This document shows positions 1 to 64,000 of a stretch of 64,000 nt of DNA, piece by piece; the stretch's first letter is position 1, and every line of letters starts with the position of its first letter. Below the pieces are notes generated by a model that did not search any database, was not told where the DNA came from, and saw only the letters and a list, made by a program, of their open reading frames with translations. The DNA comes from an uncultured Acidobacteriota bacterium. Its GTDB lineage: Bacteria; Actinomycetota; Acidimicrobiia; Spongiisociales; ZC4RG35. Position numbers and translations under genes: made by a program. The stretch covers positions 227,122-291,121 of the forward strand of contig CAVTFV010000006.1 of the NCBI GenBank assembly GCA_963734115.1. Direction: 5' to 3'.

Positions 1-317
1 CACTCGTCCCGGGCGAACCGCCACCCGATCTCGACGGCCGGTGTGAAATCAGTGCGGAACGTCGGGACGGCGAGGCCGCAGAACCCAACCAACCTGGGCG
101 CCCAGGTCGTATTGACCGCCCACAACCCATAGCCGAACTCCTCGAAATGAAGTTCGATCGTCCGCATCATCTGATCCGACTCCTCGGCGGTGAGCACCCG
201 GGGAAAGTGCTCCATCACCTCGGGGTCGGCGTTCAGGGCCGCAAAAGCGGCCCGGTCGTCGTCGCTCCACCTTCGGAGCACCAGGCGCTCGGTGTGGATC
301 GTGGGCCCGGTCTCCAT
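1..317 (-). CDS. GNAT family N-acetyltransferase (RimJ/RimL-like), partial: N-terminal ~105 aa in window, C-terminus beyond the window edge
   Basis: Minus-strand frame is open from the ATG at 317..315 to position 1. The translation is METGPTIHTERLVLRRW...HFPRVLTAEESDQMMRTIELHFEEFGYGLWAVNTTWAPRLVGFCGLAVPTFRTDFTPAVEIGWRFARDEW, which contains the GNAT motif A region (VEIGWR). It is absent from the ORF track because no stop lies inside the window. Confidence 0.55.
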   Translation of the reverse strand, partial: METGPTIHTERLVLRRWSDDDRAAFAALNADPEVMEHFPRVLTAEESDQMMRTIELHFEEFGYGLWAVNTTWAPRLVGFCGLAVPTFRTDFTPAVEIGWRFARDE

Positions 318-381
318 GTGCCCAAGCGTAGGTAAAGCCGATCTGAGCAGGACCTTCACGGTCGGCGAGACCGAGCCGAAA

Positions 382-834
382 TCAGTCGATCTTCTTCCCG
401 ATCTTCTCGGCGGTGTCCTTGACGGAGTCGCCGGCCTTCTTGGCAGCGTCGCCAACTTCATCGACCGCATTGGACGCAGCCTTCTTGGTATTGCCGGCGA
501 CCTTCTCTGCGGTGTCGCCGACCTTGTCCGCCACATCAGAAGCGGCCTTCTTGGCGCCGTCCATCGCGTCCTCGACGAGGACACCTGTTTCCTTCAGTCG
601 GGGGATCACCTGGTCCGCCACATCGGATGCACGGTCATCACCGATGATCGGCCCCAACTTCGACTCGAACTTGGCGCGAGCCTCCGCCTCGGTCAGACCG
701 TAGAAGTCTTTTCTGCGATCCGACATGAACTTGGTGATCGCGGCGACGATCCCCACGACCAGCAGCACCTTGAACAGAGTTCTGAAGGCGTGGCTCTCGT
801 CGGTTGTGTCTGCGATGACTGTGGTGTCTGTCAT
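382..834 (-). CDS. Small membrane-anchored protein (150 aa): one N-terminal TM helix followed by degenerate Ala/Lys/Asp-rich 11-mer repeats (LEA/apolipoprotein-like; possible stress protein)
   Basis: ORF 382..855; internal ATG at 834 is preceded by GGAGGTGAAAAAG (strong SD). TM segment FKVLLVVGIVAAITKF. Repeats of the form KKAASDVADKVGDTAEKVAGNTKKAASNAVDEVGDAAKKAGDSVKDTAEKIG. Confidence 0.6.
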   Translation of the reverse strand: MTDTTVIADTTDESHAFRTLFKVLLVVGIVAAITKFMSDRRKDFYGLTEAEARAKFESKLGPIIGDDRASDVADQVIPRLKETGVLVEDAMDGAKKAASDVADKVGDTAEKVAGNTKKAASNAVDEVGDAAKKAGDSVKDTAEKIGKKID

Positions 835-942
835 CTTTTTCACCTCCATCGCCAACCATACAGATCAGACACCGGGACTTTTCGCGGCTTGACGCCAAGA
901 CCCTTCACCTTGGGGTGGGGCTTGCGTAGGTTCGACCGTGCA

Positions 943-1599
943 GTGATTCGACGGTTGGTCGCCGGCCTGATCGTGGTGGGCTTGGCATTCGGGATCTGGG
1001 CCCTGTGGCCTCGGGAGAACTCAGATCCCTCCCCTACGACTGTGCCTACCGCGATCGAGACAACAACCACGACGCTCGTGACAACGACCACCACTGCCGC
1101 TCCCACGACCTCCACGACCGAGGACACCCATGTCGTGGCCAGCGTCGAGGAGGCGGAGGAGATCCTGCGCACCCTCTGGTTCGGCTGGTTCGAAGGGATC
1201 TACAACCAGGACGAGAACCGGATACGTGAGGTGGTTGGGACTCAGGCGATGTTGGACGCGGCGCGGGAATCAGTTCGGGGTCATGGACTTTCACCGCACA
1301 ACCTCCTATCGAAGCGATGTCTATCGACTCAGACGGAAATCCTCAGATCGGACGAAGAGTGCCTCGTTGTTTGGATGGGCATCGATGTGCAGCGCCTTCA
1401 GGGGGGAGGTCGACAATCGCAGATGGTGACGGTGGCTCGTAGAGCCGATGACGATGTGGGTGTTGGCTTCTCACTTGGACGCACAGGGATGACCTATGGG
1501 ACGCAGATTGCGAGTCGGAGCTGCAGCCGGTTTCGTAATCGTCGCGGTTACCTCCGCGTTGCCGGCGATGGCTCAGGACCTATACGGCTTGTTGGGTGA
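943..1599 (+). CDS. Membrane-anchored hypothetical protein with a Thr-rich linker (signal-anchor RRLVAGLIVVGLAFGIWALW, then TTTTLVTTTTTAAPTTSTT, then a globular C-terminal part)
   Basis: In-frame GTG at 943 inside the long ORF 190..1599. The upstream part of that ORF is antisense to the 382..834 gene and is rejected. The 3-prime ~100 nt overlap the next gene in another frame, so the end is uncertain. Confidence 0.4.
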   Translation: MIRRLVAGLIVVGLAFGIWALWPRENSDPSPTTVPTAIETTTTTLVTTTTTAAPTTSTTEDTHVVASVEEAEEILRTLWFGWFEGIYNQDENRIREVVGTQAMLDAARESVRGHGLSPHNLLSKRCLSTQTEILRSDEECLVVWMGIDVQRLQGGGRQSQMVTVARRADDDVGVGFSLGRTGMTYGTQIASRSCSRFRNRRGYLRVAGDGSGPIRLVG

Positions 1600-3268: not shown

Positions 3269-3397
3269 CACACTGGAGGAGGAAGAAAGTCCGAAGCTTG
3301 AGCTACTGACTTACCCCCATTGATTCGGCACCAGATCTGCCGGCTGAAGGGGTCGAACGACCCAATTGTCAGACCTTCGTCGCCAGCACCGACCACA

Positions 3398-4185
3398 TCA
3401 GGGGCAACGCTCCCGTCGATCAGGCAGACGCCACAGGCCGTCCTCTTCCTGGATCATCATGGGCAGGCCCTGCCATTCGCATTCGTCGTATTCCTCGACC
3501 CGGTCGATGCGCAGCCCGGCGCTGATCAAGGCATCCAGGGTCTCGCCGATGCCGTGGTTCCACCCGTAGTTGAGCGGGCTCCCGACCACACCCACTCCGG
3601 CATAGGTCTCGGTCTCTTCCTCACCCTCCGGCTCTTCGGTCTCGAAGTATGCGACGGTGGCCCGAAGCTCCTGGGGGTCGAGCCAATCCATCGCCCACAT
3701 CATGGGATGCCCCTCCCGCATGTAAAAGGTCCCGCCGGAGGCGAGGAAGTGTGCGACCACGTCTGCCCATTCCCTGATCTTCGGTATCCAGCAGATGGCG
3801 CCCACCCCGGTGTAGACGACATCGAAGGTCCCGTCGATCACATCCGGCGTGTCGTACAGCTCGGAGACCATCGAATCGGGCCGGAGTCCCGGACTGCTCG
3901 CTGAGATGCCTGGCCGCCTCGACCGATCGTTCCGACAGATCGGTGCCGGTCACTGTCGCCCCGAGCCGGGCCCACGAGATGGTGTCCGTCCCGATGTGAC
4001 ATTGCAGATGGAGCAGTGTCTTACCCGAAACGTCGAGTTTGTCCTTGTCGTAGGTGACGACTCCGCTCAGGTGTGTTGGGTCCGCGATGAACCTGGCGAC
4101 CCCGTACTCGTCTGAGTCCGTAGTGGATGGGGACACGAGCGTCCCAATTGGCCCGATTGGCCTCGCGGTAGTGGTCGAGCGGCAT
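3398..4185 (-). pseudogene. Class I SAM-dependent methyltransferase, interrupted by two frameshifts (about 4120 and about 3880)
   Basis: Three consecutive minus-strand frame segments: MPLDHYREANRANWDARVPIH (frame of ORF 4021..4410); SDEYGVARFIADPTHLSGVVTYDKDKLDVSGKTLLHLQCHIGTDTISWARLGATVTGTDLSERSVEAARHLSEQSG (ORF 3621..4217, SAM-binding motif I region); MVSELYDTPDVIDGTFDVVYTGVGAICWIP...FLASGGTFYMREGH (ORF 3398..3871, motif II/III region). Confidence 0.5.
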
Positions 4186-4329
4186 GGGCGAGTATGGCGG
4201 CGTAACGTCGTCCACACGGAGGAAATATGGCCCGTGTGACCGGCATCGGCGGCGTGTTCTTCCGCCTCCGGGCAGGTAGACGTTCAAGGAGTCCCGGGGT
4301 GGGAGATGAAGTCCCAGGCCTGGTCTCGC

Positions 4330-5414
4330 CCCAGGCCACGGGGACCGAGACGACGTCCGTCGGTGATCCGTCCTCGGCCGAGTGCCAGAAGACACGGATC
4401 GTCTCCCCACCGACGAACGGGTAATCGATCAGAAGGTGAAAGCTCCCCAGCATCCGGTGCCACAAGTGGCGGTGGCGAAGTCTTCATGGACCACGTTGCC
4501 GCCGGCATCCACGACTTCCAGACTCACCGTCGCCTCGAATACATTGGCAAAGCCGGTGACAGCGAGCGGTGCATTACCTGAACCGGATGCCGCCGAGTCG
4601 AGGTTGACCGAGTTGAGCTGATCGAGGAAGGCGTCCCGGCCCACCGGCTCGGCTCAGGTCGAGACCCTCCGTCCCGAAGGCGGTGACAGGCTGGCCGCCG
4701 ACCGTGAAGAGCACCTCGGAGATCTCCTCACCGTCGCTGGCGGTGTAGATCAACTGGTTGAGCATCGTCATGTCGGCGAGCAGGCCACCGGCGCCGTCGA
4801 GGAATGCCTCGTTCATGTCGACGGTGACGATCTGATCGCTCCGGGTGACACTCACAACCTCGACCGGCATCCGGGATGGAAGACTCGAATCCATCAGGCA
4901 GGAACAGCTCATCTGCAGTCAAGAGCTGCAATGCGGCGAGAGTGTCGTCAGCTTCTTGCGGTGGATAGGCGGTAGCAAAGAACGGCACCAGCGCCGGGTT
5001 ACCGGTGTTCGAGTTCTCGGGTGATTGGGTCAGGAAGACGAACACGGGCCTGGGCTCGTTCAGGACGGCGGTGCTCGTGGTCGCCGGGATAGTCGTGGTT
5101 GTCACCGTCGGCTCCGTGGTGACCGTCGTCGAGGCCTCAGGCTGGGTAGTGACCGTGGTCGGCACCGTCGAGGTCGTGGACGAGGCGACCGGGTCGACGT
5201 CGCCACCTCCCCTGGAGAGGAAGATCGGGATTGCGGCCAGCAGCAACACCACCAGGGCGGCTCCGGCAAACACGAGGACCGGACGGGGCTTGGAATCTTC
5301 ACGCTGGGTCACCGAAACCTCCTCAGGGAAAGGCGGGGGCTCCGGTGACATCGCCACCAGCCGGTCCGCAAGCTCTTTCATCTTTCGATCGTCTTTTCCG
5401 CTCATGACAGCCAC
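4330..5414 (-). pseudogene. Membrane-spanning anti-sigma factor with extracytoplasmic GerMN and Gmad2 (Ig-like) domains, cognate to the upstream ECF sigma; split over at least 4 frames. The 3-prime end is approximate
   Basis: ORF 4728..5414 has a cytoplasmic N-terminus, a TM helix (VLVFAGAALVVLLLAAIPIFL) and a Thr-rich linker. ORF 4574..4912 has a GerMN-like segment (VEVVSVTRSDQIVTVDMNEAFLDGAGG...VLFTVGGQPV). ORF 4429..4644 and ORF 4067..4465 have Gmad2-like segments (ATCGTGCWGAFTF; ETIRVFWHSAEDGSPTDVVSVPV). The start overlaps the sigma gene stop, which is the typical sigma/anti-sigma coupling. Confidence 0.45.
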
Positions 5415-6654: not shown

Positions 6655-7016
6655 ATGTTCAGAAAAGGTCTCGGCATATTCACGGCGGTAGCGGTCGCCT
6701 TGGTCGTGGTTGGTGTGGCATGGGCTGCGTCAGGAGACGATGGAGAAAACGACTCCAACTCCGAACCGGAGGTACCACGGCGACTACGAGGGTCTTACCA
6801 TCGTCGTCCCTGGTTACCGGCCCAACTTCCACCAGTCTCGACGACGCCGCATCGACGAGTCTCGATGACAGCAACACGAGCAGCACGATCGACGACAACG
6901 GCGGAGGTCGAGGCGGCAACGACGACCCAGCCGGTGACGACAACGACGGAGGTCGAGGCGGCAACGACGACCCAGCCGGTGACGACAACGGCGGCCACGG
7001 CGGCGACGACGGCTGA
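6655..7016 (+). CDS. Secreted Ser/Thr-rich and Asp/Gly/Asn-rich acidic low-complexity protein, copy 1 of a tandem paralogous pair; one frameshift near 6775
   Basis: RBS AAAAGGAGGTCC, then ATG. Signal-peptide-like N-terminus MFRKGLGIFTAVAVALVVVGVAWAASGDD. After the frameshift it continues in the frame of ORF 6720..7016 as TTATTRVLPSSSLVTGPTSTSLDDAASTSLDDSNTSSTIDDNGGGRGGNDDPAGDDNDGGRGGNDDPAGDDNGGHGGDDG, which is colinear with copy 2. Confidence 0.5.
6903..6992. repeat. Direct tandem repeat, 45 bp x 2 (ggaggtcgaggcggcaacgacgacccagccggtgacgacaacg), encoding the GGRGGNDDPAGDDND unit
   Basis: Identical 43-45 nt units start at 6903 and 6948. Confidence 0.6.
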
Positions 7017-7173
7017 ACGTCGGTTCGAGCCCACCCGAACGACCGCCCCAACTCCTGGGGGCGGTCGTTCATCTGTGTTCCACATCGTCTTGAGGTCTTC
7101 TTGAAAGACCCCTGATGCGGTGATGAGCCGCCATCTCTGACACTGGGACCAGGAACCTAAAAGGAGGTCCTCG

Positions 7174-7673
7174 ATGTTCAGAAAGATGATCGGTGTGTTC
7201 ACGGCGGTGGCGGCCGCGCTGCTACTGGTAGGCGTGGCGTTTGCATCGGGTGACGACGTCACCGATGACTCTGTCCCGGGCTCGCAGGGAACGACGGCGG
7301 GTTCGAACGTGTCGTCGTCATCGTCACTGGCGACCGGCTCTACCAACACCAGCCTGGACGACAGAACGTCGACGAGCCTTGAAGACAACGCGACCAGTAC
7401 GAGCCTCGATGACAACTCCACCACGAGCATCAGCCTGGTAGATACATCATCGACCAGCACCACTGTCGACACGACGACCAGCACCAGCGTGGACGACAAT
7501 CGACGCACAGCATCGATGATCGGGGCGGCGACGACAACAGCGGCCACGGCAACGGCGACGATGCCGGGGACGATGACAACAGCGGCCCCGGGAACAGCCA
7601 TGACGACCGAGACGGGGACGACAACAGCGGCCACGGCAACGGTGGCCATGACGACGACGGGGACCGGGGTTAG
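7174..7673 (+). CDS. Secreted Ser/Thr-rich and Asp/Gly-rich acidic protein, copy 2 of the tandem pair; one frameshift near 7500
   Basis: Almost identical RBS and start (AAAAGGAGGTCCTCGATGTTCAGAAAG). N-terminus MFRKMIGVFTAVAAALLLVGVAFASGDD, then ...SLDDRTSTSLEDNATSTSLDDN.... The C-terminal acidic tail SIDDRGGDDNSGHGNGDDAGDDDNSGPGNSHDDRDGDDNSGHGNGGHDDDGDRG is read in the -1 frame and ends at TAG 7671-7673. Confidence 0.5.
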
Positions 7674-13700: not shown

Positions 13701-14179
13701 ACGATCCGCAGACGCGGAATTCCATTCGGGATATCAGGCTGAATGTGGCCCTGGCCAATGACGAGCTCGAACAAGCGTTTTCTCTAGCCGCCAACAGACT
13801 CGAGGAGTCCACCTGGGCCGAAGTCTCCGAGACGATCGGTCACTCACTTTTCGTCACAGCCCTGCTCGGCGATGCAGCGCGCTTCGCCCTGTTGACCCCT
13901 CTGTACGAGCGGCACCTGCCGCGTTTCAGCGACTACTACACGACGTGCCAGATCCTCGCCCCTGCCGTCGATGGGCCCGTCGACACGCGGGAAATCGACG
14001 CCATCATCGCTCGACGGAAGGGATGGGGATCAGTCGCCGACGTCGTCAGGTTCTCGGTCATCGCGGCGCCTTTCACCACGCCGGACAAGCGAGCGGAGTA
14101 TCTGTCGACCGCTCGGTCCATCGCCACCGAGCGGGGATGGCACGGGATCCTCAGGTTGATCGATTCACATTTGAGCTGA
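10751..14179 (+). CDS. Multidomain signalling protein: N-terminal double zinc ribbon (4 x CxxC), class III adenylate/guanylate cyclase domain, AAA/STAND-type ATPase (GEAGIGKSRL) and C-terminal TPR-like repeats (~1140 aa); family of actinobacterial AC-ATPase-TPR regulators but without a LuxR HTH
   Basis: Cyclase motifs LVTVLFADLTGFTEFSE and FIGDAVMAVWGA. Walker A SLVGEAGIGKSRLVWEF. Uninterrupted ORF to 14179. Start is uncertain: GTG 10751 is chosen to avoid the 70-bp antisense overlap with the cNMP gene, and the track ORF begins at TTG 10571. Confidence 0.75.
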   Translation: MICSVCNSENPAGNRFCGNCGNPFAIVCSSCGASNEPGTHFCGQCGTSLASAQVPAAPTVTAERRLVTVLFADLTGFTEFSEGRDAEDVRDFQTSYFDQSRRVIQLFGGIIEKFIGDAVMAVWGAETATEDDAERAIRAGFELIDIVAKLSADVGAPDLGLRVGIHTGEAAVGPNDDRMGFVTGDLVNTASRLQTIAESGTVLVGDNTQKAAQRSIAFEAVGSQALKGKSLPVAVWQATRVLSERAGRGKAESLEPPFVGRANELRLLKDLLDAVGIESRARLVSLVGEAGIGKSRLVWEFLKYIDGLVDTIYWHEGRSLAYGEGVTFWAISEMIKGRAGIAEGDDDETVARRLDETLDTYVSDSGDRAWMRPRLAAVLGEGEAPGDRSELDAAVRAFFGAVADQGTTVLVFEDLHWADSALIDFVEDLTDWWRDRPILIVTMARPDLLELKPSWGAGRQGVISVTLGPMSTEDMLELVHGAVPGLPQTSAEAIVERAAGIPLYAVELLRGLLAQGQLAGEAGDYRVVGDLAQLVIPESLQAVIGARLDRLGADERALIQDAAVLGQTFNVTGLAVLTGRDASDLEGQLQSLSRRELIEPVRDIRSADRGQYRFLQGLIRDVALGRLSRENRRARHLAVAEYLESLDDPELAGIVSGHYLQALETSPAGEARDVIRDRALLSMIQAAARAADLKSDQQVLSISESALEIADNDEARVPFWEMVIEAAGRLANLESAERYAGLAMAHHRANGDQVSLTRVSRKFALGLVENNQPERAVELLRPLVESDFASDPELARAAVVYARGLMLNQMPGVVEVADRALAAVEELDFMPEIIDALITKGTEFGKVGRLSEARIILEGAIALAEDHHLGSSIARGQGNLAYVLFGLDDAASLAVAEDAYRTAQRLGNRSLLLFHVGQMAIAYVDIGEFEKAEEVLANPLTREQPPAARVYTANAELTMAAWRGDTEVVERLDAEVTRLISEVDDPQTRNSIRDIRLNVALANDELEQAFSLAANRLEESTWAEVSETIGHSLFVTALLGDAARFALLTPLYERHLPRFSDYYTTCQILAPAVDGPVDTREIDAIIARRKGWGSVADVVRFSVIAAPFTTPDKRAEYLSTARSIATERGWHGILRLIDSHLS

Positions 14180-14868
14180 ATCGCCGCAGGATCCAGTCGA
14201 CCAGAAGGTCGCCGTCGGTGGTGCCATCGAGTGAGGCCAGACCCTCGTTCGCAGTCGCTTCCGGGATCAGGTTGCCCCGGCGGGACTCCATCAGCGCCTG
14301 CGAGTAGGCAGGGTCGAACTCGGGGTGGCCCTGAATGCCGATCATGTTCTCGCCCACGCCCAACATCGAGACCGGGCAATGTTCGTTCCAGCCCAGGATC
14401 TCAGCCCCTGGGGGCAGCTCCTCGATCTGATCCTGGTGTGAGGTGAGGACGGTGTAGGAGGGGCCGAGACCCAGGTCTCCCCTTACCTCCACCTCTTTGG
14501 CACCTACTCCCCACCCCCGTTCTGACTTGACCACGCGTGCCACCGAGAGCCTTGGCGATGAGCTGATGACCGAAGCAGACCCCGACGAACGGGACCTGCT
14601 CCTTCGCCACATCACGAACGAAGGCTTCGAGATCCCGGATCCACGGCTCGTCGTCATTGACCGAGTAACGAGACCCGGTCGTGATCCAGGCGTCGCACTC
14701 CCCCGGATCCGCAGGCAGCTGGCCACCGATGACGTCATAGACGACGATCTCCACCTCGGGATGGCCAGCGAACAGCCTCCGAAACATGTCCGGATAGTCC
14801 CCCGAGATGTGCTCGAACTCCGGCCGAACGTGATCACAGACGAGCAGACCTAGCCGCATGAGACTCAT
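14151..14868 (-). CDS. Class I glutamine amidotransferase-like protein (candidate gamma-glutamyl-amide hydrolase of the ethanolamine cluster); one frameshift near 14525
   Basis: N-terminal part is ORF 14401..14868 (VGVCFGHQLIAKALGG, catalytic Cys). The C-terminal part continues in the frame of ORF 14151..14837 (VVKSERGWGVGAKEVEV...MIGIQGHPEFD, catalytic His). Confidence 0.6.
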
Positions 14869-19665: not shown

Positions 19666-21210
19666 ATGTCGACCGAACGCAAGGTCGGCTCGGTCACCTA
19701 TCGGGACGTCGACCAGGGGTACTTCGACCAGCGGGGCTTGAAACGTCATGCCGGGGTGTGGATGCTGTGGGCCCTTGGAGTGGCCGCGGTCATCTCCGGT
19801 GACTTCTCCGGGTGGAACTTCGGTCTCGACGTCGGCGGGTTCGGCGGGCTCTTCGTCGCCACGATCGTCATCACGATCATGTACATAGGGCTCTGCTACT
19901 CCATCTCGGAGATGTCGCCTGCGCTACCTCACACCGGAGGCGCCTATTCCTTCGCCCGATCGTCGATGGGGCCCTGGGGTGGATTCATAACCGGGGTCGC
20001 AGAGAACATCGAGTACGTGGTGACACCGGTGGTGGTGGTGTACTTCGCCTCGATCTACGCGCAGAGCGTGTTCAACGACCTGTTCGGTTTCGAGCTCGGC
20101 CTGCCCTGGTGGTGGGTGATCTTCTATGCGATCTTCGTCGGGCTCAACATCATCGGGATCGAAGCGACGATGCGGTTCTCGGTGGTGATAGCTGTGATAT
20201 CGCTGGCGGTGCTGGCCGTGTTCTTCGTACTCGCCATTCCCGAACTTCGATGCGTCTCTGCTGACCAACATCGTCGCGGAGGAGGGCGGCACGTCGTTCC
20301 TCCCATTTGGGGTCGCCGGCATATTCGCCGCCTTGCCCTTCGCCATCTGGTTCTACCTGGCGATCGAGGAACTGCCCTTGGCCGCCGAGGAGTCGATGGA
20401 TCCGAAGCGGGACGTTCCGAGAGGGACGATGTGGGGATTGTGGACCTTGGTCATCACCGGAATGGGAGTCCTCTTCCTCAACACCGGGGTCGGTGATGGG
20501 GCCGAGGGGATCAGGACATCGGGTGAGCCTCTCCTGGACGGGTTCCGGCAGGTCCTGGGGAGCGATACCAGTGCCGCCATCCTCGGACTGTTCGCCCTCA
20601 CCGGGCTGATCGCCAGCTTCCACACCATCATCTATGCCTACGGGCGGAACATCTACTCGCTCTCGAGGGCGGGCTACTTCCCTCACTGGATGTCGATCAC
20701 CCACGGCAAGCGGAAGACGCCCTACGTGGCTCTTCTCCTCGGAGCGGTAGTAGGCCTGGCGCTGGCGTTCTTGTTGGACGGTCAGTACACCGGGACCGCC
20801 GGGGCGGCGCTGCTTGAGCATGGCGGTGTTCGGGGCGGTGATCTCCTACTTCATGCAGATGCTCTCCTTCATCCGGCTCAGGCGGAACATGCCGAACATC
20901 TCGCGGCCGTATCGGAGCCCGGTCGGGAATCTTCGGAGCGGCTGTCGCCGGTCTGATCGCCCTCATCTCGTTGGTGGCGTTGTTCTTCAATGACGCCTAT
21001 CGCCCCGGGGTATACGGGGTCGCCATATGGTTCGTCCTCGCCCTGCTCTATTTCGCCCTCTCCGGGCGGAACAAGCTGGTCCTGTCCCCCGAGGAGGAGT
21101 TCGCCATGACTCAGGGCGAGCACGGTCATCCCGAAGAGGAGGGATACGGCACGACGTCGGTCGCCGACACCACGGCCACCGACACGACGGTGCCAGACCC
21201 CCAGGCCTGA
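19666..21210 (+). pseudogene. Ethanolamine permease (APC-family Eat/EutP-like), interrupted by about 3 frameshifts (near 20240, 20810 and 20930)
   Basis: ATG 19666 is preceded by GGGAGG. Frame 1 runs up to ...VFFVLAIP and continues in frame 2 as NFDASLLTNIVAEEGGTSFLPFGVAGIFAALPFAIWFYLAIEELPLAAEE (ORF 20333..20956). The C-terminus is in a third frame (ORF 20971..21210: FFNDAYRPGVYGVAIWFVLALLYFAL...). Confidence 0.6.
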
Positions 21211-21262: not shown

Positions 21263-21271
21263 AATCGTTGT

Positions 21272-22069
21272 CTAGCCCCCGAAGCGCTGATCGCGCCAGC
21301 GGATCGCCGCCTTGAGGCCCTCCTCTGCTGTGATGCGGTCGAATTCCTCGCGTTCGGGGGCCCGAGCGGCTTCGATCTCGGCGCCGAGCTCGACGCCTTC
21401 GATCAGAGCCTGACGGAAGCCGGCCGCCTCCCACGAGCGATTGAGGGCCCGCTTGGTGAGGGTCATCACTGCCGGGTCGACCACGGCCAGCTCCTGGGCC
21501 AGCCGCATCGTCTCAGCTTCCAGATCCTCCCGAGGGACCACCCGGTTGACCAACCCGATGCGATGCGCCTCTGTCGCCTCGAGCTTGTCGTGCCCGGTCA
21601 AGATCAGCTCCTTGGCCCGACGGGCCCCGATGAGCCATGGCATCACGTGGGCAACGACTGCCGACCCGAACCGGATCTCGGGCTGACCGAACACGGCATC
21701 GTCCGACGCCACCGCCAGATCGCACATCATCATCAGATCGCACCCGCCGGCGAGACAGTGGCCATGCACCTGGGCGATGATCGGCCGGGGGTGGTCGAAG
21801 ACCTCGAGCAAACGATCGAGGCTGTTGGTGAGACCCTCTGAGGCGCTCTCCGCTCCCGATTCCTCCGAGAGGTCGTATCCGGCGCAGAACGAGCGGCCGG
21901 CCCCGGCGATCACGATCACCCTGACCCCGGCGTCTTGGGCCGCCTGGCCCAGCGCATCCGACAGCGCCTCGACCAGGGCCGTGTCGAGGGCGTTCAGCTT
22001 CTCAGGTCGGTTCAGCGTGAGACGGCGTATCGGGCCAATGTCCTCGACCAGAAGAACCGGCCCACTCAT
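21272..22069 (-). CDS. Enoyl-CoA hydratase/isomerase (crotonase) family protein
   Basis: Crotonase fold motifs (RLTLNRPEKLNAL; AGAGRSFCAGYDL). Start ATG overlaps the upstream gene stop (ATGA). Confidence 0.85.
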   Translation of the reverse strand: MSGPVLLVEDIGPIRRLTLNRPEKLNALDTALVEALSDALGQAAQDAGVRVIVIAGAGRSFCAGYDLSEESGAESASEGLTNSLDRLLEVFDHPRPIIAQVHGHCLAGGCDLMMMCDLAVASDDAVFGQPEIRFGSAVVAHVMPWLIGARRAKELILTGHDKLEATEAHRIGLVNRVVPREDLEAETMRLAQELAVVDPAVMTLTKRALNRSWEAAGFRQALIEGVELGAEIEAARAPEREEFDRITAEEGLKAAIRWRDQRFGG

Positions 22070-36742: not shown

Positions 36743-36758
36743 CTGAACCGCCGTTCAG
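36743..36758. promoter_or_regulatory. Palindromic operator candidate CTGAAC-CGCC-GTTCAG, 37 bp upstream of the aldH-acd operon start
   Basis: Perfect half-sites. Confidence 0.45.
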
Positions 36759-36794
36759 AAAACCAGGGACGAAGTGGCCAGTTCGGCAGCGAAG

Positions 36795-44151: not shown

Positions 44152-45116
44152 CTAGGCCGGGACTGCCCAACAGGCGGCTGCAGTGAGGGCGCCTACCGGC
44201 GTTGGCCCTGGGTCATCGGTGGGACATCGAGCCGCGATCTCCGGCGCGAGGGTCCCTGACTGGAGCAAAGGGCATCGGGGATGAAAACGGCATCCCGAAG
44301 GGATCCGGGCCGGATCTGGTATCTCCCCGATCAGGATCTGCTGCTCCATCTCCCTCGTCTCAGGTACCACCGACAGCAAAGCCCGGGTGTAGGGATGCCG
44401 GGGGTTCTCGAGGATCTGCTCGGTCGGACCCGTCTCGACAATCCGGCCCAGGTACATGACAGCGACTCGGTCGGCGATATTCCAGGCGAGACCGAGATCG
44501 TGGGTGACCACGAGGATGGCCAATCCGGTCTCGTCCACGAGACGACGCATCAAGGCCAGGATCTCGCCCCGGATGGATGCGTCGAGACTGGCCACCGGCT
44601 CGTCTGCCAGCAATAGGCGCGGCTCCATGACCATGGCCCCGGCGATGACGACACGCTGACGCTGACCCCCCGAGATCTCATGCGGATACAGGGGGAAGAA
44701 TCGCTCCGGTGGGCGAAGGCCGGCCCGCGACAGTGCCTGCGCCACCTGGTCCTGTTCGTTGCCGGCACCATGCTGGATGCGCAGTCCCTCGGCGACGACT
44801 TCGTAGATGGTCTGGCGGGGGTTCAGGGCGCCGGTGGGATCCTGGAAGACCATCTGGACGGTCGGATTGAAGATGGTCTGGACCTTCGGTCGCGCCGCCC
44901 TCCGTCCTCACTTTCGACCCTGATCTGACCGGAGGTCGGCTTCTGCAAGCCCTGGATGGCCCGGATCAGCGTCGTCTTCCCCGATCCCGACTCGCCGACC
45001 AGAGCCAGCACCTCGCCCGGCGATACATGCAGGGAGGCGCCATCGACCGCCCGAGCCGCCCCGAAGTGGACGTGCAGGTCCTCCACCTCGACCAGATTGG
45101 TCACACCAGCACGCAC
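44152..45116 (-). CDS. Peptide/opine-type ABC transporter ATP-binding protein (DppF/OppF-like); one frameshift near 44860
   Basis: Walker A GESGSGKTT in ORF 44823..45116. The remainder is in ORF 44152..44853 (signature ISGGQRQRVVIAGA; Walker B LLLADEP). Confidence 0.65.
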
Positions 45117-54787: not shown

Positions 54788-55487
54788 ATGTCAACGAGTG
54801 CTACCCAGCCGGGTACCACCACAAGGACAGGACGTTCGGGTAAGGGTCTCGGCATCGCCGCGACCGCTCTCGCCATCGTCATCGCCGCCGGCTTCGTGTT
54901 CGCTATCAATCAGGGGAACGAAGTCACAGGGTCCGGAGTCAACGAGTTGTCCGGTCCGGCGGAGATCGCTGCCGCTCGCCACGCCGAGCGGGTTCGGCTC
55001 AGTGAGCTGGCGGCGCAGACCGCAGTTCGTCCGGCCGGTTCTGCCGAACTGGCCAGGCTCAACGAGCTAGCTGCACAGGTCAAGGCGGAGTCACATCCGG
55101 CAGTTCAACATCGAGAAGACCAAGATGGAGCTGGCGGCGCAGACCGCAGTTCGTCCGGCCGGTTCTGCCGAACTGGCCAGGCTCAACGAGCTAGCTGCAC
55201 AGGTCAAGGCGGAGTCGCATCCTGCGTTCAACATCGAGAAGACCAAAATGGAGCTGGCCGGACAGCTGGCCGTTGTCAACGAGCATCCGGGGCTCAACCC
55301 CGAGAAAACCAGGATGGAAATGCTGATCAACAAGCTCGATGAGCGGATCTACGTTCCGAGCATCGTGCTTCCCAGCGTCGCTACGAGCTACTGGAGCGAG
55401 GGCAACCTCGACCTCAGACGAGCACAAGCGAAGGCTCAGCAGCCAACCGAGCTGAATCAGCCAGACTGGGACAATCGGATGCCCTGA
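54788..55487 (+). CDS. Membrane-anchored protein with 41-aa tandem repeats (ELAAQTAVRPAGSAELARLNELAAQVKAESHPAFNIEKTKM) x2 plus a degenerate third; one frameshift in repeat 1 (near 55100)
   Basis: RBS GGGAAGGGAGAG. N-terminal TM LGIAATALAIVIAAGFVFAI. Reading continues in ORF 55125..55487 after a 1-nt insertion relative to repeat 2. Confidence 0.55.
55004..55260. repeat. Intragenic tandem repeat, unit 123 bp (copy 1 is 124 bp because of one extra base), 2 full copies plus a partial third
   Basis: Copies start at 55004 and 55128 with more than 95% identity. A third partial copy starts at 55251. Confidence 0.7.
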
Positions 55488-55535: not shown

Positions 55536-55751
55536 TCCTATTGGCACCGTCAGAAGAATCCCCGACACCGGCACGATCCAGTGGTGTAGGTTCGGAAGCC
55601 GTTTTTCAAGGGAGGCTGCACCCAGCAAGGGTGTATCACTGGGCTCGGCATGTGGCGCTGATGGAGCCCGGGTCATTCGGGGCGGTGGTGGCCACGCAGG
55701 TCGAGCCCGGCGCGGCGATCACCCCAAGGGAGTGCCGAGGAGGAGAAGACC

Positions 55752-58700
55752 ATGAGCGTGCAGCAAACGGACCAGCCTTGGGATTTCGTATGCAATCCGG
55801 ATAATGAATCGATGTGCGCCAACCTCCTGCGGGATGATTCACCACTGGTTCCGGAAGAGGAAGAGCAGGCTCCGCCCGAGGGTCTCGAGCATTTCGTTCT
55901 CGTTCATCCCGATCAGGTGGTCATCAATGTCCCGATCGGGGTAACGATCGATTTCGACCAGTTCGGGTTACAGCCGGTCGAGCCTCGCGATTTCTTTCTG
56001 TCGGAGGAAGTGGCAGACGACGAACTGGAAGAGGCTCAGCGTGTGCTCGAACTCCTCGGCAGAGGAGAGTCGATGGCCAGACAGTCGTCATCTACAAGCT
56101 CAAGAATCCCGACGGATGATCTGTTTCAGACGATCAACCGGGTTCAGGAGAAGACCGGTTTTCCGGCGAGCCCGCACTACCTGATGAAGCCCGCACCAAA
56201 GTGGAGATACGGTCCCCACGGCAATGTGGCGCAGACTCGACCCGGCCCACAAATGGAGACGATCTGAAGGTCACCGGACCTGACAGTGCGGCACCTAGCG
56301 GGCGTGTGATCGTGATCGACACCGGAGGCAACGGCAATCTCTCTGCCATTGGCATTTCCGTCGCCGAGCCGGAACCGAACCCCAACCCACCTAACGGGCT
56401 GCTGCCGGAAGCCGTCGGCCATGGCACCTTCGCCGCCTCAATCGCCAAGAAATACAACCCTGGTTTGAACGTCGAGCTGTACCGGGCAAGCTCGACGAAC
56501 GGGATCCTCGATGAGATTTGGGGTTTTGGCCGCGTTTCGGAGGGCCCAGCCCGCCTCGGGTGACGTGTTGAGCCTGTCATTCGGCACGTACCCGGCCGGC
56601 CGAAAATATGAGCCGGTGATCCTTCCACGCGCCCTCGAATATTGCCTTCAAGGCTCAGCCGTCGTCGCCGCCAGCGGCAACGACGGTCCGACCACGTACC
56701 GTCCCAGCTCTACCCAGCGTCACGATCGGATGTGCTCGGAGTGAGCGCTCTGGACAAAACTTGGCAACCGCCGGTGTGGGCGAACGTCGGTGATGTCTCC
56801 GCACCCGGGGTGGATGTGGTCGGCTGGTACCACGACAAGACCGACTGGGAGCCTGGCGGTGTGGAGCGGCACCTCGTTCGCCACGCCGTACACGCGGCTT
56901 GCCTTGCCTCAGGGGGGATTTGTTAGCGCGGTGACCGAGGAGGGCGACCAACTGATCCTGCTCGCTGAGCGGGATCCAACTGCCTGCGTCGTGACCTGTA
57001 ACGAGATCCTTTCCAAACCGGCGCCGAATGGCCAGTTGGCCGATGCTCATCGCGCCCTGGGAATCGCGCTTCGTTCATTGGGTGAGATCGACGATTCGAT
57101 CCGCGAGCTCGAGCTGGCCCGTGATGTCTATCGAGAGCACGGAAACGACGCGGGTTCGGCCGAGGCCATCATCTCACTGGCGGCCTCGGTGGCGATGTCA
57201 GGGAGACTCGACGATGGAATCGAGTTGCTCGAACCTTTACTTCATGAGAGTAGCGACGCCGTGCGGACCCACGCCCAAGTCCAGAAGGCCGGTCTCATCG
57301 CCCGAACCGGCGATCTCGAAGGGGCAATGGGTCTTTACCGCTTGGCAGAACCGGTCCTGAAGAGCTCGAACGATCTGCGCTGGCTCGCTCTCCTCTACAG
57401 CACCCGCGGCCTGGTACTGACCTATCAATCCGAGTTCGACAGGGCCGAGATCGACCTGCGGCTCGCCAGAGACCTCTTTCTCGATGCTCGATCGCGCCGC
57501 ACCGGCCGCCGAGATGGTGCACAACCTCGGTTTTGTCGCAGTTCAGAAAGGAGATATCGCCAGAGGGCTGTCGATCATGCTCGAGGCGGAGGAATTGTGG
57601 AAGCAAGCCGGTCTTCCCACCGAGGCGATCGCCTCCGATCGGTCATATGCCTACATGCTGGCCGGTCTACCCGGTGAGGCATTCCAGATCGCTCTGAGCA
57701 CGGCCCGCCGTCTCGGCTCCCAAGGCCATCAGCTGGAGCGGGCCGAGGCCCTCTACCTGGCGGCGCGGGCCGCCCTGGCTAGTGGTGATTCCAAATCTGC
57801 TGTCGAAGTTGCAGAGGAGGCGGCGCGATCTGGCAACTGACCAGGATCGTGAGTCATGGCGGCTGATGGCGAGGGTGGTGCTGGAGGAGGCCCGCTTTCG
57901 GGCCGGGATGCTGGGCGATCCGAAGGATCTGGTCGCGCTCGCCAGCGCCTTCTCCGCCCAGGGAAACTCTTCGGGCGAGGCGCATGCCCGTGCCTTGGCC
58001 TCGCTTCGATTCTTGGAAACGGGTGACCTGGCCGCCGCCGAGGAAAGCCTGGACACGATCGCGGCCGACGAGTCGATCCACACAGATCTTCCGGTGCGGC
58101 TGTTGGTGGCGGTGGCGAAAGCCGAGCTCCTGCTGGCCAAGGGCGACAGCGAGATGGCGACAGAGGTGCTCGAAAAGGCGGCGGATCTGGTCGACGGTCA
58201 CCGAATTCTTCTCAGCGCTACCGAGGCCAGAGCAGGTGTCAGCCTCCTCGCCGACGAGATCGCCGGCCTGGGACGCCGAGCGATCCACGAGGATGGACGA
58301 TCCGCAATCAGTTGGACCGAGAGATTCCGGGGAGCGTCGTTGCGGATCGCTCCGGTTGTCATGACTCCGGACACCGAACTGGGCGACCAACCTGGCCGAG
58401 CTGCGGGGGCTCGTCCGCGAGATAGAAGAGCTCACCCTCGAAGGTGAGGACACCAGCGAGCTGACCGCCGAGGTCAAGCGTCTGGAGCGCCGGATCGGTG
58501 ATCTATCGGTGGCCCGGGAGCAGGCTGCCGGCACCGTGGCGCCGGTAGGTGGCGTCGAGCAACTGGTCGACGCCCTGGGGTCACGTCAGATGCTCTATCT
58601 CTATCACGTGTCCGATCGCACCTGCGGCGAATTGGTGGGCCCGACGGGAAGCGAGCAAGTCGACTTGGGCGGGTCCGCCCGCCTGAGATTCCTCGCCCAT

Positions 58701-59518
58701 CATCTCCTCTCCGGGCTCCGCCGTGACTTCATGCTCCGGGGACGCAGTCTGAATCACCCGTCCCACGTGAAGGAAATGGTCCTGGAGCTGGCGAAGCATC
58801 TCCTCGCCCCGTTGGCCGGCAAAGGGCCCGATGCCGGTGATAGCCCCACCTCCCGACTTGGTCAGCTTGCCCTGGAACGCGATGGCTGCTGCTGTCGACC
58901 CAAGTCTCTCGGTGGTAGTGGCCCCGTCTGCGGGACAATGGATGCGGGCCGATCGCCAGGCTCGGCGATCTAAGCGGGTGAGTGTCGTGGCCGGGCCGAG
59001 ACTGGAGTACGCCGCCGCCGAGGCCGAGCGTGTCGCCGGGCTCTACGAAACGCCGGAGATCCTGGACGTGGACGGTGCCACGGTCGAAGCCGTGATCGAG
59101 ACAATGGGTCAATGCGATCGGTTCCACGCAGTGGCCCACACGAGGCTGAGGGACGACAACCCGATGTTCTCGGCACTGGAACTCGCTGACGGATACCTCA
59201 ATCTCTACGACCTCGAGGGGTTGGAGAGCGTCCCCGACACCGTCGTGCTGTCGGCCTGCGATTCCGCCCACGACAACGTCGTCGGAGGAAACGAGATGTA
59301 TGGCCTCACTTCCCTGCTCCTCTCCCGTGGGGCTCGGTCGATCATCGCAACGGTGGCGCCGATCCCGGACTCCCCTGATTCTGTGGAGGCCGTTGCCCGA
59401 ATTCATGAGAGTCTCAGCGCGGGTGCGTCTGCGGCGGCAGCTGTGCAGAGCGGCACAGACCGGTTTCGATGGTGCGGAGGTAGACCCCTCCCTGGCCTTC
59501 GTCGCCTACGGCGCTTGA
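55752..59518 (+). pseudogene. Large multidomain protein: acidic N-terminal region, subtilisin-like S8 serine peptidase, TPR-repeat region, C-terminal CHAT (caspase-like) domain (about 1250 aa); fragmented into about 9 frame segments
   Basis: Strong RBS GAGGAGGAGAAG at the ATG 55752. S8 catalytic motifs across segments: D-box VIVIDTGGNG, H-box GHGTFAAS, N-box AVVAASGNDG, S-box GTSFATP. TPR-like segments in ORFs 56790..57677, 57484..57840 and 57782..58447. CHAT N-lobe LYLYHVSDRT and catalytic region FHAVAHTRL...VLSACDSA (ORF 58831..59652). Probable end AFVAYGA* at 59518. Confidence 0.5.
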
Positions 59519-59525
59519 ACCAACA

Positions 59526-59887: not shown

Positions 59888-60347
59888 TCAGAGGACGATC
59901 CACTCGGTCTTGACCGCTTCTTCACCCTCGATGCGGATGACGAATGCCACCGGCCCGTTGTAGACCCCTTCGAACTCAAAGCGGCCCTGGTCGTCGGACT
60001 CGGTCGTGAGAACCCTGGTGACGAGATGCAGCTCGACCGTCATGTGACCTGCTGGTTCGATCTGACCCATGAGCTGGCCGGCAGAACGGGTCGTACTCGA
60101 GGTCGATCAGCCATTCATCGGACTGGAAAGCGAGTATTCGCGCCGTGGCGACGCCGCGTACTCCCGTCGTAGCCGACTCCTCGCTCGAGTCGAACGAGAT
60201 TTGGGCCAACTCGGCGTCGATGTTGCGCCAAGAGAGGGCGGCCTTGGCGAAGTCGGTCACATCCGCAGGCGTCGGGTCGGATTCGTCGAATCCTCGCTTC
60301 AACAGCGAGACGAGATTCTCCTCTTGCTGGCTGGTCAACTCACTCAT
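59888..60347 (-). CDS. Putative sigma-factor partner protein (paralogue B): a ~60-aa N-terminal domain homologous to the upstream small gene, fused to a CarboxypepD_reg/transthyretin-like beta-sandwich; one frameshift near 60065
   Basis: ORF 59976..60347 (MSELTSQQEENLVSLLKRGFDESDPTPADVTDFAKAALSWRNIDAELAQISFD...) continues in ORF 59888..60070 (HMTVELHLVTRVLTTESDDQGRFEFEGVYNGPVAFVIRIEGEE). Confidence 0.45.
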
Positions 60348-60532
60348 CGGGGATCATCTCCTGGTTCGAACGCGTCAAAGGAGATGCGATCCAGCTCGGC
60401 ATCGATCGCACGCCATGAAAAAACCGCTTCGGCGAAAGCGGTCACATCCGCCGGCGGCTTGTCAGATCCGTCGAAGCCTTGCTGGAGAAGCAATACGAGC
60501 TCTTGCTCCTGTGGCTGTGTCGACTCCATCAC
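60344..60532 (-). CDS. Small protein (62 aa), paralogue A of the putative sigma-factor partner domain; translationally coupled to the sigma gene
   Basis: MMESTQPQEQELVLLLQQGFDGSDKPPADVTAFAEAVFSWRAIDAELDRISFDA is about 55% identical to the N-terminus of paralogue B. Overlaps the sigma stop and the next start. Confidence 0.5.
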   Translation of the reverse strand: MMESTQPQEQELVLLLQQGFDGSDKPPADVTAFAEAVFSWRAIDAELDRISFDAFEPGDDPR

Positions 60533-61125: not shown

Positions 61126-61296
61126 CCGGTCAATCGTACGGACGGGGAGGGCCCGATCGGCCTCTAATAGGGGATTCTTTCTGTGGTGCGCGAAACGACC
61201 CCCGGGAAATCCCGGAGGTCGCTTCGCTTTCTGGCCCCCAATCGACCGTCGGTGTCAAGGCCCGACGGCCTCCCCCAGAGTCGGTATCGTCAGGGG

Positions 61297-62670: not shown

Positions 62671-62679
62671 GACCTCAGC

Positions 62680-63390
62680 CTATGCCGCCTCCCTGATGAG
62701 ACGAACCGCTTCCTCCACCCCACCGCTCCATGGCGCCCCATGTCCGGGCAGGACCCATTTTGCCGGTAACTTCTCAAGGCGATCGAGTGAGGCGAGCGCC
62801 TGTTCGGTGTCGAGGGTGAAAGGCGCCGGCTGGGGCCCGACGGCGCCGGTCAGAACGTGGCCTGTGGTCAACGCGTCTCCCACGAAGACTGCATCGACCG
62901 TCGGGACATGGAAGGCGACACTCCCCGGGGTGTGACCGGGGATATGGATCACCACGGGTGAACCGGGCAAGTCCAGCACCTGACCATCGGCGAAGGTGAC
63001 CACCTCGGAGACGGGGGTGACCTTCAGCCCACCCCGACGGCCGCTGTACCAGATGAACCGAGTGAGTGGGCCGATCTTGACCTTGCCCCAGGAGATGTCC
63101 TTCTTCACCTCGCCACGGGCCCGTGTGGCGTCGAGCTCGTGGACCAAGATGGGGACTCCCCGCTCCCGACGGAGACGCTCCGCGAACCCGATGTGATCGG
63201 TGTCGCCATGGGTGAGGATGACGGCACGTACATCGCCCAGGGAGCGCCCCATGGCGGTCAGCTCGGGCTCGAGCTCGTCCCAGAGACCGGGGAGCCCGGC
63301 ATCGACGATCGTGACCCCGCCGGCGTCCTCGACCAGATACACGTTGACCAGGTCGGAACCGATGCGATGCAGTGACGGCGCCAGTTTCAT
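62680..63390 (-). CDS. MBL-fold metallo-hydrolase (236 aa)
   Basis: HxHxDH motif ILTHGDTDH. Downstream metal ligands (HIPGHTPGS; LPGHG). Confidence 0.85.
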   Translation of the reverse strand: MKLAPSLHRIGSDLVNVYLVEDAGGVTIVDAGLPGLWDELEPELTAMGRSLGDVRAVILTHGDTDHIGFAERLRRERGVPILVHELDATRARGEVKKDISWGKVKIGPLTRFIWYSGRRGGLKVTPVSEVVTFADGQVLDLPGSPVVIHIPGHTPGSVAFHVPTVDAVFVGDALTTGHVLTGAVGPQPAPFTLDTEQALASLDRLEKLPAKWVLPGHGAPWSGGVEEAVRLIREAA

Positions 63391-63420
63391 CGAGACAGCC
63401 TAAGCAGCCTCGAAATGGGT

Positions 63421-64000
63421 TCAGTAGGCGTTGGCGACCATCAGCTCCTCGCAGGGGAAGAGAGTGATGACCTTGGCGCCGTCGGCGGTCACGACGAGCT
63501 CCTCTTCGATGCGGGCTGCGGAGCGCCCATCGGCCGCCGGTGCGTATGTCTCGAGGGCGAACACCATCCCCTCCTGGATCTCGATGGGGGCATCGATCGA
63601 GTTGAGACGGCTGATGATCGGCCGTTCGTGGAGGCCAACCCCCACCCCGTGGCCGAATTGGAGCCCGAAGGCATCCATCTCGTTCTCGAACCCGAATTCC
63701 TCGGCCTTGGGCCAAACCTTGGCGATTTCGTCGGTGCTGGCGCCCGGCTTGACCAGTTCGATTGCTGCGTCCATCCACTCCCGGGACTGCTTGAAGGCGT
63801 CCCGTTGCGCCTGGGTGGCCCGACCCACCACGAATGTGCGGTAGTAACACGTGCGGTAGCCGTTGAAGACGTGGATGATGTCGAAATACGCCTGGTCGCC
63901 CGGTCGGATCAATCGGTCGGAGAACACATGCGGGTGCGGGCTGCATCTCTCACCGGCGATCGAGTTGATGGCCTCGACGAACTCCGAGCCCATCTCGAAG
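63421..64000 (-). CDS. M24-family metallopeptidase (Xaa-Pro aminopeptidase/creatinase-like), C-terminal part; gene start lies beyond the window
   Basis: Pita-bread fold metal-ligand region (HGVGVGLHE; MVFALET). Frame open to the right edge. Confidence 0.7.
   Translation of the reverse strand, partial: FEMGSEFVEAINSIAGERCSPHPHVFSDRLIRPGDQAYFDIIHVFNGYRTCYYRTFVVGRATQAQRDAFKQSREWMDAAIELVKPGASTDEIAKVWPKAEEFGFENEMDAFGLQFGHGVGVGLHERPIISRLNSIDAPIEIQEGMVFALETYAPAADGRSAARIEEELVVTADGAKVITLFPCEELMVANAY

Follow-up and report, generated by a model that had tools for sequence, protein, structure and literature searches.

Phase-variable contingency loci work by slippage at simple-sequence repeats, and bacterial genome decay of the Mycobacterium leprae type is characterized by many pseudogenes. 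Natural indel mutation in bacteria is biased toward deletions. Modern long reads have a raw indel rate close to about 3 per kb, and the typical errors of a long-read consensus are homopolymer deletions. Long-read assemblies carry indel and frameshift errors that depend on coverage, and more of them are encountered in soil (PMC9262707; PMC13087279). The polishing of collapsed heterozygous regions leads to haplotype mixtures and to frameshifts in coding regions (PMC8092372).

The 64,000 nt of DNA analysed here (the window) contain about 50 frame-breaking indels, distributed across 18 of its 57 genes, as revealed by the alignment of intact proteins from ten or more related assemblies (Table 1). 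The remaining coding sequence, 39.8 kb, is devoid of frame breaks in the same alignments. A preliminary description had counted about 35 frameshifts. Their presence is upheld but the protein alignment raises their number. The accompanying list of affected genes was largely correct, except for dppB, and lacked two genes, one for a Rieske oxygenase and one for a 124-aa protein.

Codon-usage Viterbi decoding was applied as a first pass and showed many frame switches on the same strand. Taken alone, it called too many switches where genes truly begin or end, and it put a gene at 9.7-10.2 kb in the wrong frame; its use was restricted to this first pass. Events were located by frameshift-aware protein-to-DNA alignment of the relatives' intact proteins against the window, and exact positions were refined by DNA alignments. 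The nearest relatives are contigs of soil metagenomes assembled from long reads, Microflora Danica MAGs among them. We used the long-read-style relatives L009, L010, and L002 (87-91% DNA identity), the Microflora Danica MAG relatives L012 and L013, and as further relatives L011 (SPAdes), L003 (MEGAHIT), and the JGI contigs L004-L008 and L014-L017.

Table 1. Genes of the window with frame-breaking indels
Gene	Position	Strand	Events	Remarks
hyp124, hypothetical gene, 124 aa	943..1318	+	1268 +1	Intact in L009, L010
hyp292, hypothetical gene, 292 aa	2354..3231	+	2440 +1, 2538 +1	Described earlier as 'BNR-like'
SAM methyltransferase	3372..4185	-	3409 -1, 3872 +1, 4116 +1	Relatives' proteins carry PF08241
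GerMN/Gmad2 protein	4287..5405	-	4326 -1, ~4432 -1, 4653 +1, 4865 +1	Adjoins ECF sigma factor
Acidic secreted paralogue, copy 1	6655..7104	+	~6769 -1	Frame 0 to 2
Acidic secreted paralogue, copy 2	7174..7670	+	7501-7512, net 4-nt deletion	
Glutamine amidotransferase	14154..14868	-	14536 +1 (C)	Adjoining site is G or C in relatives
Amino-acid/ethanolamine permease	19666..21207	+	20242, 20814, 20925, all +1	513 aa in relatives
NDP-forming acyl-CoA synthetase	22069..24115	-	22417, 22437, 22458, 22467, 23122, 23152, 23792, all +1	680 aa in relatives
Rieske oxygenase alpha subunit	32406..33595	+	33540 +1, ~33577 +1	C-terminus shifted
DUF1801 gene	33677..34078	+	33933 -1, 33985 +1	Compensating pair; 17 codons between them out of frame
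Amine oxidase	36758..37970	-	36882, 37184, 37598, 37855, all +1	403 aa in relatives
TPR histidine kinase	42356..44142	+	43186 -1	Site is C or G in relatives
dppF-like ABC ATPase	44155..45116	-	44897-44903, net -1	
Membrane protein with 123-nt tandem repeats	54788..55484	+	55102 +1 (A)	
S8 peptidase	55631..56923	+	~10 events, 55730-56892: 55730, 56060, 56067, 56115, 56233, 56259, 56523, 56844, all +1; 56693, 56892, both -1	430 aa in L012
TPR-CHAT protein	56904..59515	+	57485, 57825, 58386, 58837, 59449, all +1	869 aa in L012, 868 aa in Illumina-derived L011
Anti-sigma-like partner of ECF sigma factor	59891..60353	-	60083 +1	CA at 60082-60083, C or A in relatives
Note: +1, the window has one extra base; -1, one base is missing in the window.

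The frameshifts described earlier for the 'BNR-like' gene (two), the glutamine amidotransferase (one), the permease (three), the DUF1801 gene (two, compensating), the TPR histidine kinase, the dppF-like gene, and the sigma partner B (one each) were all found. Both acidic paralogues are broken as described. Four events each were located in the GerMN gene and the amine oxidase gene, for which 'three or more' and 'four or more' had been given. The membrane protein break, described as ccggcagttc in one repeat copy versus cctgcgttc in the other, corresponds to the extra base at 55102. It is seen against the second repeat copy of the gene itself, the repeat spacing being 124 and then 123. For three other entries the breaks stand but their numbers or assignments do not. 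The methyltransferase carries three events, not two. The three frameshifts of the acyl-CoA synthetase hold as net frame changes but arise from seven one-base insertions, and the supposed S8-TPR-CHAT gene with about eight frameshifts consists of two genes with about 10 and five events, respectively. One further event, at 60423, is intergenic and lengthens a run of five A.

The dppB-like frameshift could not be sustained, as dppB (46953-47891) is in a single frame across 313 of 313 residues, with 92% identity. The apparent pair at 47372/47379 in this gene was discarded together with candidates at 27160, 40032, 54098, 60646, and 61216, all of which reflect start-site or alignment effects or errors in the relative. 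Two apparent in-frame stops at 9637-10116 trace back to an ORF called in L009 in antisense orientation; the true gene (9695-10237, plus strand) is intact and without frame break. A scan of the window for tRNAs and Rfam families, as possible borders of mobile elements, found none.

The events are strongly clustered. Statistics were computed on 48 events in 17 of 56 genes, before acidic copy 1 (~6769) and the second Rieske event (~33577) were added. Under a uniform rate, a mean of 30 genes was struck and the minimum was 19 over 200,000 simulations, versus 17 observed; none of the 200,000 simulations reproduced the observed concentration. The variance/mean ratio of events is 4.3 (2-kb bins), and the coefficient of variation of the inter-event gaps is 1.92 (simulated maximum 1.76). 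The probability that all 39.8 kb of clean genes remain clean under a uniform rate is 6e-15. The earlier statement that a uniform indel rate is inadequate is thus borne out by simulation, and more strongly than it was made, but its argument that no 3.4-kb ORF could survive was overstated (P = 0.058 for that one gene at the mean rate). The regions in which events concentrate are 0.5-5 kb long and have some 3 events per kb (~1.2-4.9, 20.2-23.8, 33.5-34.0, 36.9-37.9, and 55.1-60.4 kb). These clusters look regional more than gene-specific, as they span neighbouring genes and intergenic spacers, an adjacency viewed without a formal test. DNA identity to relatives is no lower inside the clusters, and the 55-57 kb region, despite about 11 events, is among the best stretches (92-94% identical to L012). 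Affected genes are no more polymorphic among relatives than clean ones (9.8% vs 9.1%), so this polymorphism does not explain where the clusters begin and end.

Forty insertions stand against 10 deletions (for 39:10, binomial p=4e-5). Of 37 insertions, 28 added a base unlike either of its neighbours, which confirms the earlier claim of breaks outside homopolymers, and only one of the 37 lies inside a run of at least three identical bases. The classic nanopore signature of homopolymer-linked, deletion-biased indels was looked for and is absent. The excess of insertions, together with their near absence from runs, indicates that the classic homopolymer mode is not the cause.

What characterizes the insertions is their relation to the alleles of the relatives. 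Of 32 insertions, 17 added a base that occurs among the relatives as an allele of the adjoining site (null 0.20, p=4e-5). With a strict criterion and region-specific nulls, 12 of 24 non-homopolymer insertions match while 3.2 are expected (0 of 200,000 simulations, P<5e-6), and 12 of 17 match where at least three relatives are available. The alleles for this test were taken from related populations, not from the source sample. At 60083, for example, the window reads CA and the relatives C or A; similarly, it reads GA for G or A (59449), AG for A or G (23152), and G+AAC for GAG or AAC (20242). For about half of the insertions, the few relatives sampled offer no matching allele. Of five single-base deletions, four hit alignment columns in which the relatives differ from one another (null 0.26, p=0.019).

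We thus consider it very likely, judging from the sequence comparisons, that the frameshifts are consensus errors from collapsed strain variation rather than mutations in a cell. The window is part of an Acidimicrobiia-like genome from an uncultured soil organism, and the source assembly is probably a long-read metagenome. Reads of at least two co-occurring strains were apparently collapsed into one consensus in some segments a few kb long. Where these strains differed by a single base, both alleles may have been written side by side, which would generate a 1-nt insertion; less often, neither may have been written, which would generate a 1-nt deletion. Each such event would throw out of frame a gene that is otherwise intact and under selection, and segments dominated by a single strain would emerge clean. 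The sequencing technology, the polisher, and the local strain mixing or low depth behind the regional clustering are what we infer. Insertion bias outside homopolymers is atypical for long reads, and it is explained only by the proposed doubling of alleles.

Random residual read errors might be considered instead, with low-depth segments resting on one to few noisy long reads and no mixing of strains. The density within clusters is indeed near the raw indel rate of long reads, the insertions that match no allele of the relatives would be accommodated, and a dependence of such errors on coverage is documented (PMC9262707). We nevertheless regard this as improbable, because random errors predict a match to the neighbouring allele in about 13-24% of cases, whereas 50-71% is observed. 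They also predict homopolymer enrichment, with no insertion bias or with a deletion bias, neither of which is seen, and they predict accompanying substitutions, whereas identity in the clusters is not reduced.

The relatives bear on whether any of these genes is broken in nature. The comparison with orthologues in related genomes, which had been proposed earlier, was run. It showed that each of the broken genes forms one uninterrupted ORF in the independently assembled relatives, Illumina assemblies of 87-91% DNA identity among them, and is intact in all relatives examined (L002, L003-L007, L009-L012, and L014-L017). Site-by-site checks found no frame break shared with any relative. The extra bases of the permease and of the acyl-CoA synthetase are missing from every relative examined; for the permease these relatives include L009, L010, and four Illumina contigs (L014-L017). 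In a metagenome scan, a query with the permease N-terminus retrieved relatives, and a query with a TPR-CHAT fragment retrieved none.

Adding or removing single bases restores full-length, conserved, stop-free proteins. These are 85-97% identical to close relatives (L009, L002, L012), except for the DUF1801 protein (73%) and the amine oxidase (67%), both of which have distant relatives only. The corrected GerMN protein is 93% identical to its L009 counterpart, and its four indels contrast with only 14 window-unique substitutions. According to the codon-usage Viterbi decoding, codon bias persists in the frame that follows each shift. The related long-read contig L002 has an extra base at the window equivalent of 52325, a defect of the same type that occurs there at lower density.

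Genuine recent pseudogenisation, with about 18 genes lost by locus-specific decay, is very hard to reconcile with these data, and we consider it highly unlikely. The frameshifts are present in the deposited sequence, and several of the affected genes, those for the S8 peptidase, the CHAT protein, the methyltransferase, and GerMN, belong to the accessory set and could be dispensable. Window-unique nonsynonymous changes are slightly elevated in affected genes: the ratio of changes at codon positions 1+2 to those at position 3 is 0.54, versus 0.27 in clean genes, but this stems largely from the methyltransferase, a divergent allele. Against decay stand the privacy of every break and the complete absence of nonsense codons in the 18 corrected genes, versus about 50 frameshifts. 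The S8 peptidase would have acquired up to 10 independent events in 1.3 kb while retaining 90% identity to its orthologue and its codon bias. The insertion excess is opposite to the bacterial deletion bias, most events are outside homopolymers, and core metabolic and transport genes (dppF, permease, acyl-CoA synthetase) are also struck. Moreover, the inserted base corresponds to the other allele of the site next to it, and no mutational process is known to act in this way.

Equally hard to accept is that the indels are real in another sense, namely that a soil Acidimicrobiia population carries dozens of recent, insertion-biased frameshifts in a few chromosomal segments. If so, the cause might possibly be error-prone repair or recombination on mismatched inter-strain heteroduplexes which leaves both alleles in tandem.

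Phase variation at contingency loci, or programmed recoding (ribosomal frameshifting or transcriptional slippage), has next to no chance of being correct: some clustered events do lie in surface, secreted, or regulatory genes, and the intergenic event at 60423 does extend a homopolymer, but insertions are nearly absent from runs, the 123-nt repeat found in the two stretches searched for repeats (6400-7800 and 54600-55600) is not a slippage tract, up to 10 shifts occur per gene and in both directions, orthologues are single-framed in all relatives with no conservation of shift sites, and metabolic enzymes are affected.

The preliminary description had left the choice between decay or phase variation and consensus errors. 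The former is rejected on the basis of the intact relatives, the lack of nonsense codons, the undiminished identity, and the indel spectrum; allele doubling and the polymorphic deletion columns favour consensus errors caused by strain heterogeneity. Such errors represent no new biology, and the value of the result is practical. Annotation of the window would wrongly present about one-third of its genes as pseudogenes or split ORFs, and downstream claims of gene loss built on these breaks would be wrong. This class of error can be recognized without reads, by private 1-nt insertions outside homopolymers that equal the relatives' alternative allele, by a lack of nonsense codons, and by divergence that is not raised. 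Applied to public MAGs whose reads are hard to obtain, the allele-doubling test could reveal consensus errors that stem from collapsed strains.

Among known systems, the frameshift errors of long-read assemblies (IDEEL-type truncated proteins [Sereika et al., 2022, PMC9262707]; nanoMDBG evaluation [PMC13087279]; proovframe [preprint, 10.1101/2021.08.23.457338]) resemble the present case in that single-base indels split conserved genes, are private to one assembly, can be removed with the help of relatives, and vary along and between contigs. In addition, the closest relatives are from long-read soil assemblies, one of which (L002) has the same defect. The textbook pattern consists of homopolymer deletions, whereas 80% of the events in the window are insertions, nearly all of them outside homopolymers. 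Decay of the Mycobacterium leprae type shares the many interrupted genes (18 of 57 here) and the several lesions per gene, but nonsense codons and large deletions are lacking in the window, divergence is not raised, and the lesions are insertion-biased, unshared, and at polymorphic sites. Phase-variable contingency loci share frame changes by one base in some secreted and regulatory genes, but the sites in the window are without repeat or homopolymer tracts, single genes carry many events, and housekeeping enzymes are among those struck. Haplotype-mixture polishing errors, as described for diploid genomes and metagenomes (Hapo-G; PMC8092372), likewise arise when reads of more than one haplotype enter the consensus, and they too coincide with variant sites and upset reading frames; for the window, the alleles of the source strains are deduced from related populations and not from the sample itself.

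The window has a G+C content of 64%, and its proteins are 91-94% identical to those of uncultured Acidimicrobiia from soil metagenomes. When scanned for tRNAs and Rfam families, it yielded neither. A first pass with a codon-usage Viterbi model returned numerous same-strand frame switches, and codon bias persists in the new frame after a shift. Syntenic relatives (L001-L017, see the table) were gathered to span the whole window, each of their intact proteins was aligned to it by a frameshift-aware dynamic programme, and breakpoints were sharpened on DNA alignments. These alignments put the number of frame-disrupting indels at about 50, in 18 of the 57 genes. The clustered frameshifts of the preliminary description are confirmed. 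Its gene list is largely right, including GerMN (three or more claimed, four events found), the two compensating shifts in DUF1801 (which put the 17 codons between them out of frame) and the break in the repeat gene, where an extra A is visible against the gene's own 123-nt repeat. Several counts had to be changed: the methyltransferase carries three events rather than two, the acyl-CoA synthetase seven single-base insertions (three net frame changes) rather than three, and the supposed single S8-TPR-CHAT gene with about eight frameshifts consists of two separate genes that carry about 10 and 5 events. The dppB gene, listed as frameshifted, is intact; the Rieske oxygenase and a 124-aa gene, both frameshifted, had been missed.

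The clustering is statistically overwhelming. For an interim tally of 48 events affecting 17 of 56 genes, a uniform model hit 30 genes on average and at minimum 19 in 200,000 simulations, which bears out the earlier statement that a uniform indel rate cannot explain the distribution. The variance/mean ratio is 4.3 (2-kb bins), and the 39.8 kb of event-free genes would jointly stay clean with a probability of 6e-15. The clusters span adjacent genes, and alignments to relatives show single-base differences in their intergenic spacers, too. Because both are affected, the clusters look regional more than gene-specific. Polymorphism among the relatives is not higher in affected genes than in clean ones.

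Coordinates of indel clusters, example sites, genes and related loci (window positions unless a locus is named)
Feature	Position	Remarks
Event clusters	about 1.2-4.9, 20.2-23.8, 33.5-34.0, 36.9-37.9, 55.1-60.4 kb	
Spacer differences (examples)	3259, 59836-59883, 60354, 60423	within clusters
Insertion	60083	window CA; L012 C; L013 and L011 A
Insertion	59449	window GA; relatives G or A
Insertion	23152	window AG; relatives A or G
Insertion	20242	window G+AAC; relatives GAG or AAC
Insertion in repeat gene	55102	extra A
Methyltransferase gene	3372-4185	
Acidic secreted protein genes	6655-7104, 7174-7670	tandem copies; Asp-, Asn-, Gly-, Ser-, Thr-rich
Extra 531 bp	6553-7083	
Ser/Thr-rich protein gene	9695-10237 (+)	180 aa, intact
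Rejected gene call	L009 8949-9431 (-); window 9637-10116	antisense ORF
GATase to acyl-CoA synthetase genes	14154-24115	
Membrane protein gene repeats	55004-55274	123-nt (41-codon) tandem repeats, 84-98% identical
S8 to sigma factor genes	55631-61134	
S8 and CHAT genes of L001	L001 16699-21599	divergently oriented
Extra base in L002	L002 11268 (window-equivalent 52325)	
L009, ENA, ctg..._8x_l	0.4-24.2 kb	about 91% DNA identity
L010, ENA contig_485	0.6-21.2 kb	about 91%
L014-L017, JGI contigs	16.4-23.7 kb	87-91%
L003, MEGAHIT k141 contig	21-42 kb	72-80%
L004-L008, JGI contigs	parts of 28-42 kb	78-82%
L002, ENA contig_11692	41.1-57.3 kb	87% to 52.7 kb, 70-75% beyond
L001, GCA_046128585.1	41.1-52.7 kb	77%
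L012, L013, Microflora Danica MAGs	48.5-64 kb	89% and 82-83%
L011, SPAdes MAG	56.7-64 kb	83%

Every affected gene is a single intact ORF in every relative, short-read assemblies included, and up to seven independent contigs lack the insertions of the permease and acyl-CoA synthetase genes. The corrected proteins have no in-frame stops and are 85-97% identical to those of close relatives (L009, L002, L012); DUF1801 (73%) and the amine oxidase (67%) have distant relatives only. DNA identity to relatives is not reduced inside the clusters, 55-57 kb being among the best-matching stretches, and GerMN carries four indels versus only 14 lineage-specific substitutions. Affected genes show a mild rise in window-unique changes at the first and second codon positions, owing mainly to the methyltransferase. 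Its gene has 99 window-unique substitutions over 815 sites versus 25 and 39 in two relatives; irrespective of the three frameshifts, it resembles a divergent allele, possibly acquired by recombination.

Insertions outnumber deletions 40:10 (p=4e-5, calculated for 39:10). In 28 of 37 cases the inserted base matches neither neighbour, in line with the earlier remark that several breaks lie outside homopolymers, and only 1/37 lies in a run of three or more identical bases. The most telling property is that the extra base usually equals the other allele at an adjoining polymorphic site. This allele doubling applies to 17/32 insertions (null 0.20, p=4e-5). In a strict test, restricted to non-homopolymer insertions and using region-specific nulls, 12 of 24 match versus 3.2 expected, which was equalled in none of 200,000 simulations; at sites with three or more relatives, 12 of 17 match. 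For half of the insertions, none of the few relatives sampled offers a matching allele. Four of five single-base deletions fall on columns polymorphic among relatives (p=0.019).

Random error at low depth alone, without strain mixing, accounts for the regional pattern but does not explain why inserted bases match alleles, why homopolymers are not enriched and why insertions prevail; we consider it improbable. The private nature of the indels, the indel-only damage, the insertion excess, the avoidance of homopolymers and the allele match argue against real mutations; pseudogenisation, which would moreover require that a gene still 90% identical to its orthologue had taken as many as 10 independent hits, is very improbable. 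Phase variation or programmed frameshifting, lacking repeat tracts, slippery sites and conservation of the shifts, is the least credible reading.

Some observations concern gene content. L009 and L010 have one copy of the small secreted gene and lack the extra 531 bp; both window copies are frameshifted. A gene call in L009 proved to be antisense to the real gene, whose Ser/Thr-rich product is probably secreted. Genes for GATase, aldehyde dehydrogenase, short-chain dehydrogenase, a glutamine-synthetase-like protein, amino-acid permease, enoyl-CoA hydratase and NDP-forming acyl-CoA synthetase have identical order in L009, and this neighbourhood suggests a putative amine or ethanolamine catabolic cluster of the gamma-glutamylation type. 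The S8 peptidase, TPR-CHAT, small anti-sigma-like and ECF sigma factor genes lie together in the window and align with L011-L013 (in L011 and L012 the ORFs were checked); they may form a signalling or protease module that is conserved. The titles of both Microflora Danica MAGs read "uncultured Acidobacteriota bacterium"; same-gene homologues in other records are labelled Acidimicrobiia or Actinomycetota, and the former label may be wrong. Long-read relatives have private single-base indels (L010 3332, 3349 (window coordinates), 10077; L009 15812, 19528), most of them between genes and most in short runs of G or C.

The frameshifts are not a real genomic feature, and we consider it highly likely that the frame-breaking events are artefacts. 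Between decay or phase variation and assembly error, both offered previously, the former is rejected and the latter is supported in its strain-heterogeneity form. Most simply, SNPs that distinguish co-assembled strains would have entered the consensus as "both alleles", giving an insertion, or as "neither allele", giving a deletion. Such consensus writing would entail the insertion bias, the non-homopolymer context, no nonsense codons, no added divergence and events confined to some contig segments. We infer, rather than show, which sequencing technology and polisher were used and what set the segment boundaries. The nearest relatives come from long-read soil metagenome assemblies, which fits a consensus error. 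One extra base in L002 garbles the C-terminus of its FAD oxidoreductase (P0091, 539 aa; only 83% of the query is aligned), so related long-read contigs bear the same error type at lower density. The analysis yields a useful read-free diagnostic for collapsed-strain consensus errors. Published work is also consistent with the strain-mixing account: coverage-dependent frameshift errors are documented for long-read assemblies, especially from soil (PMC9262707; PMC13087279), and so are haplotype mixtures and coding frameshifts that arise when collapsed heterozygous regions are polished (PMC8092372).
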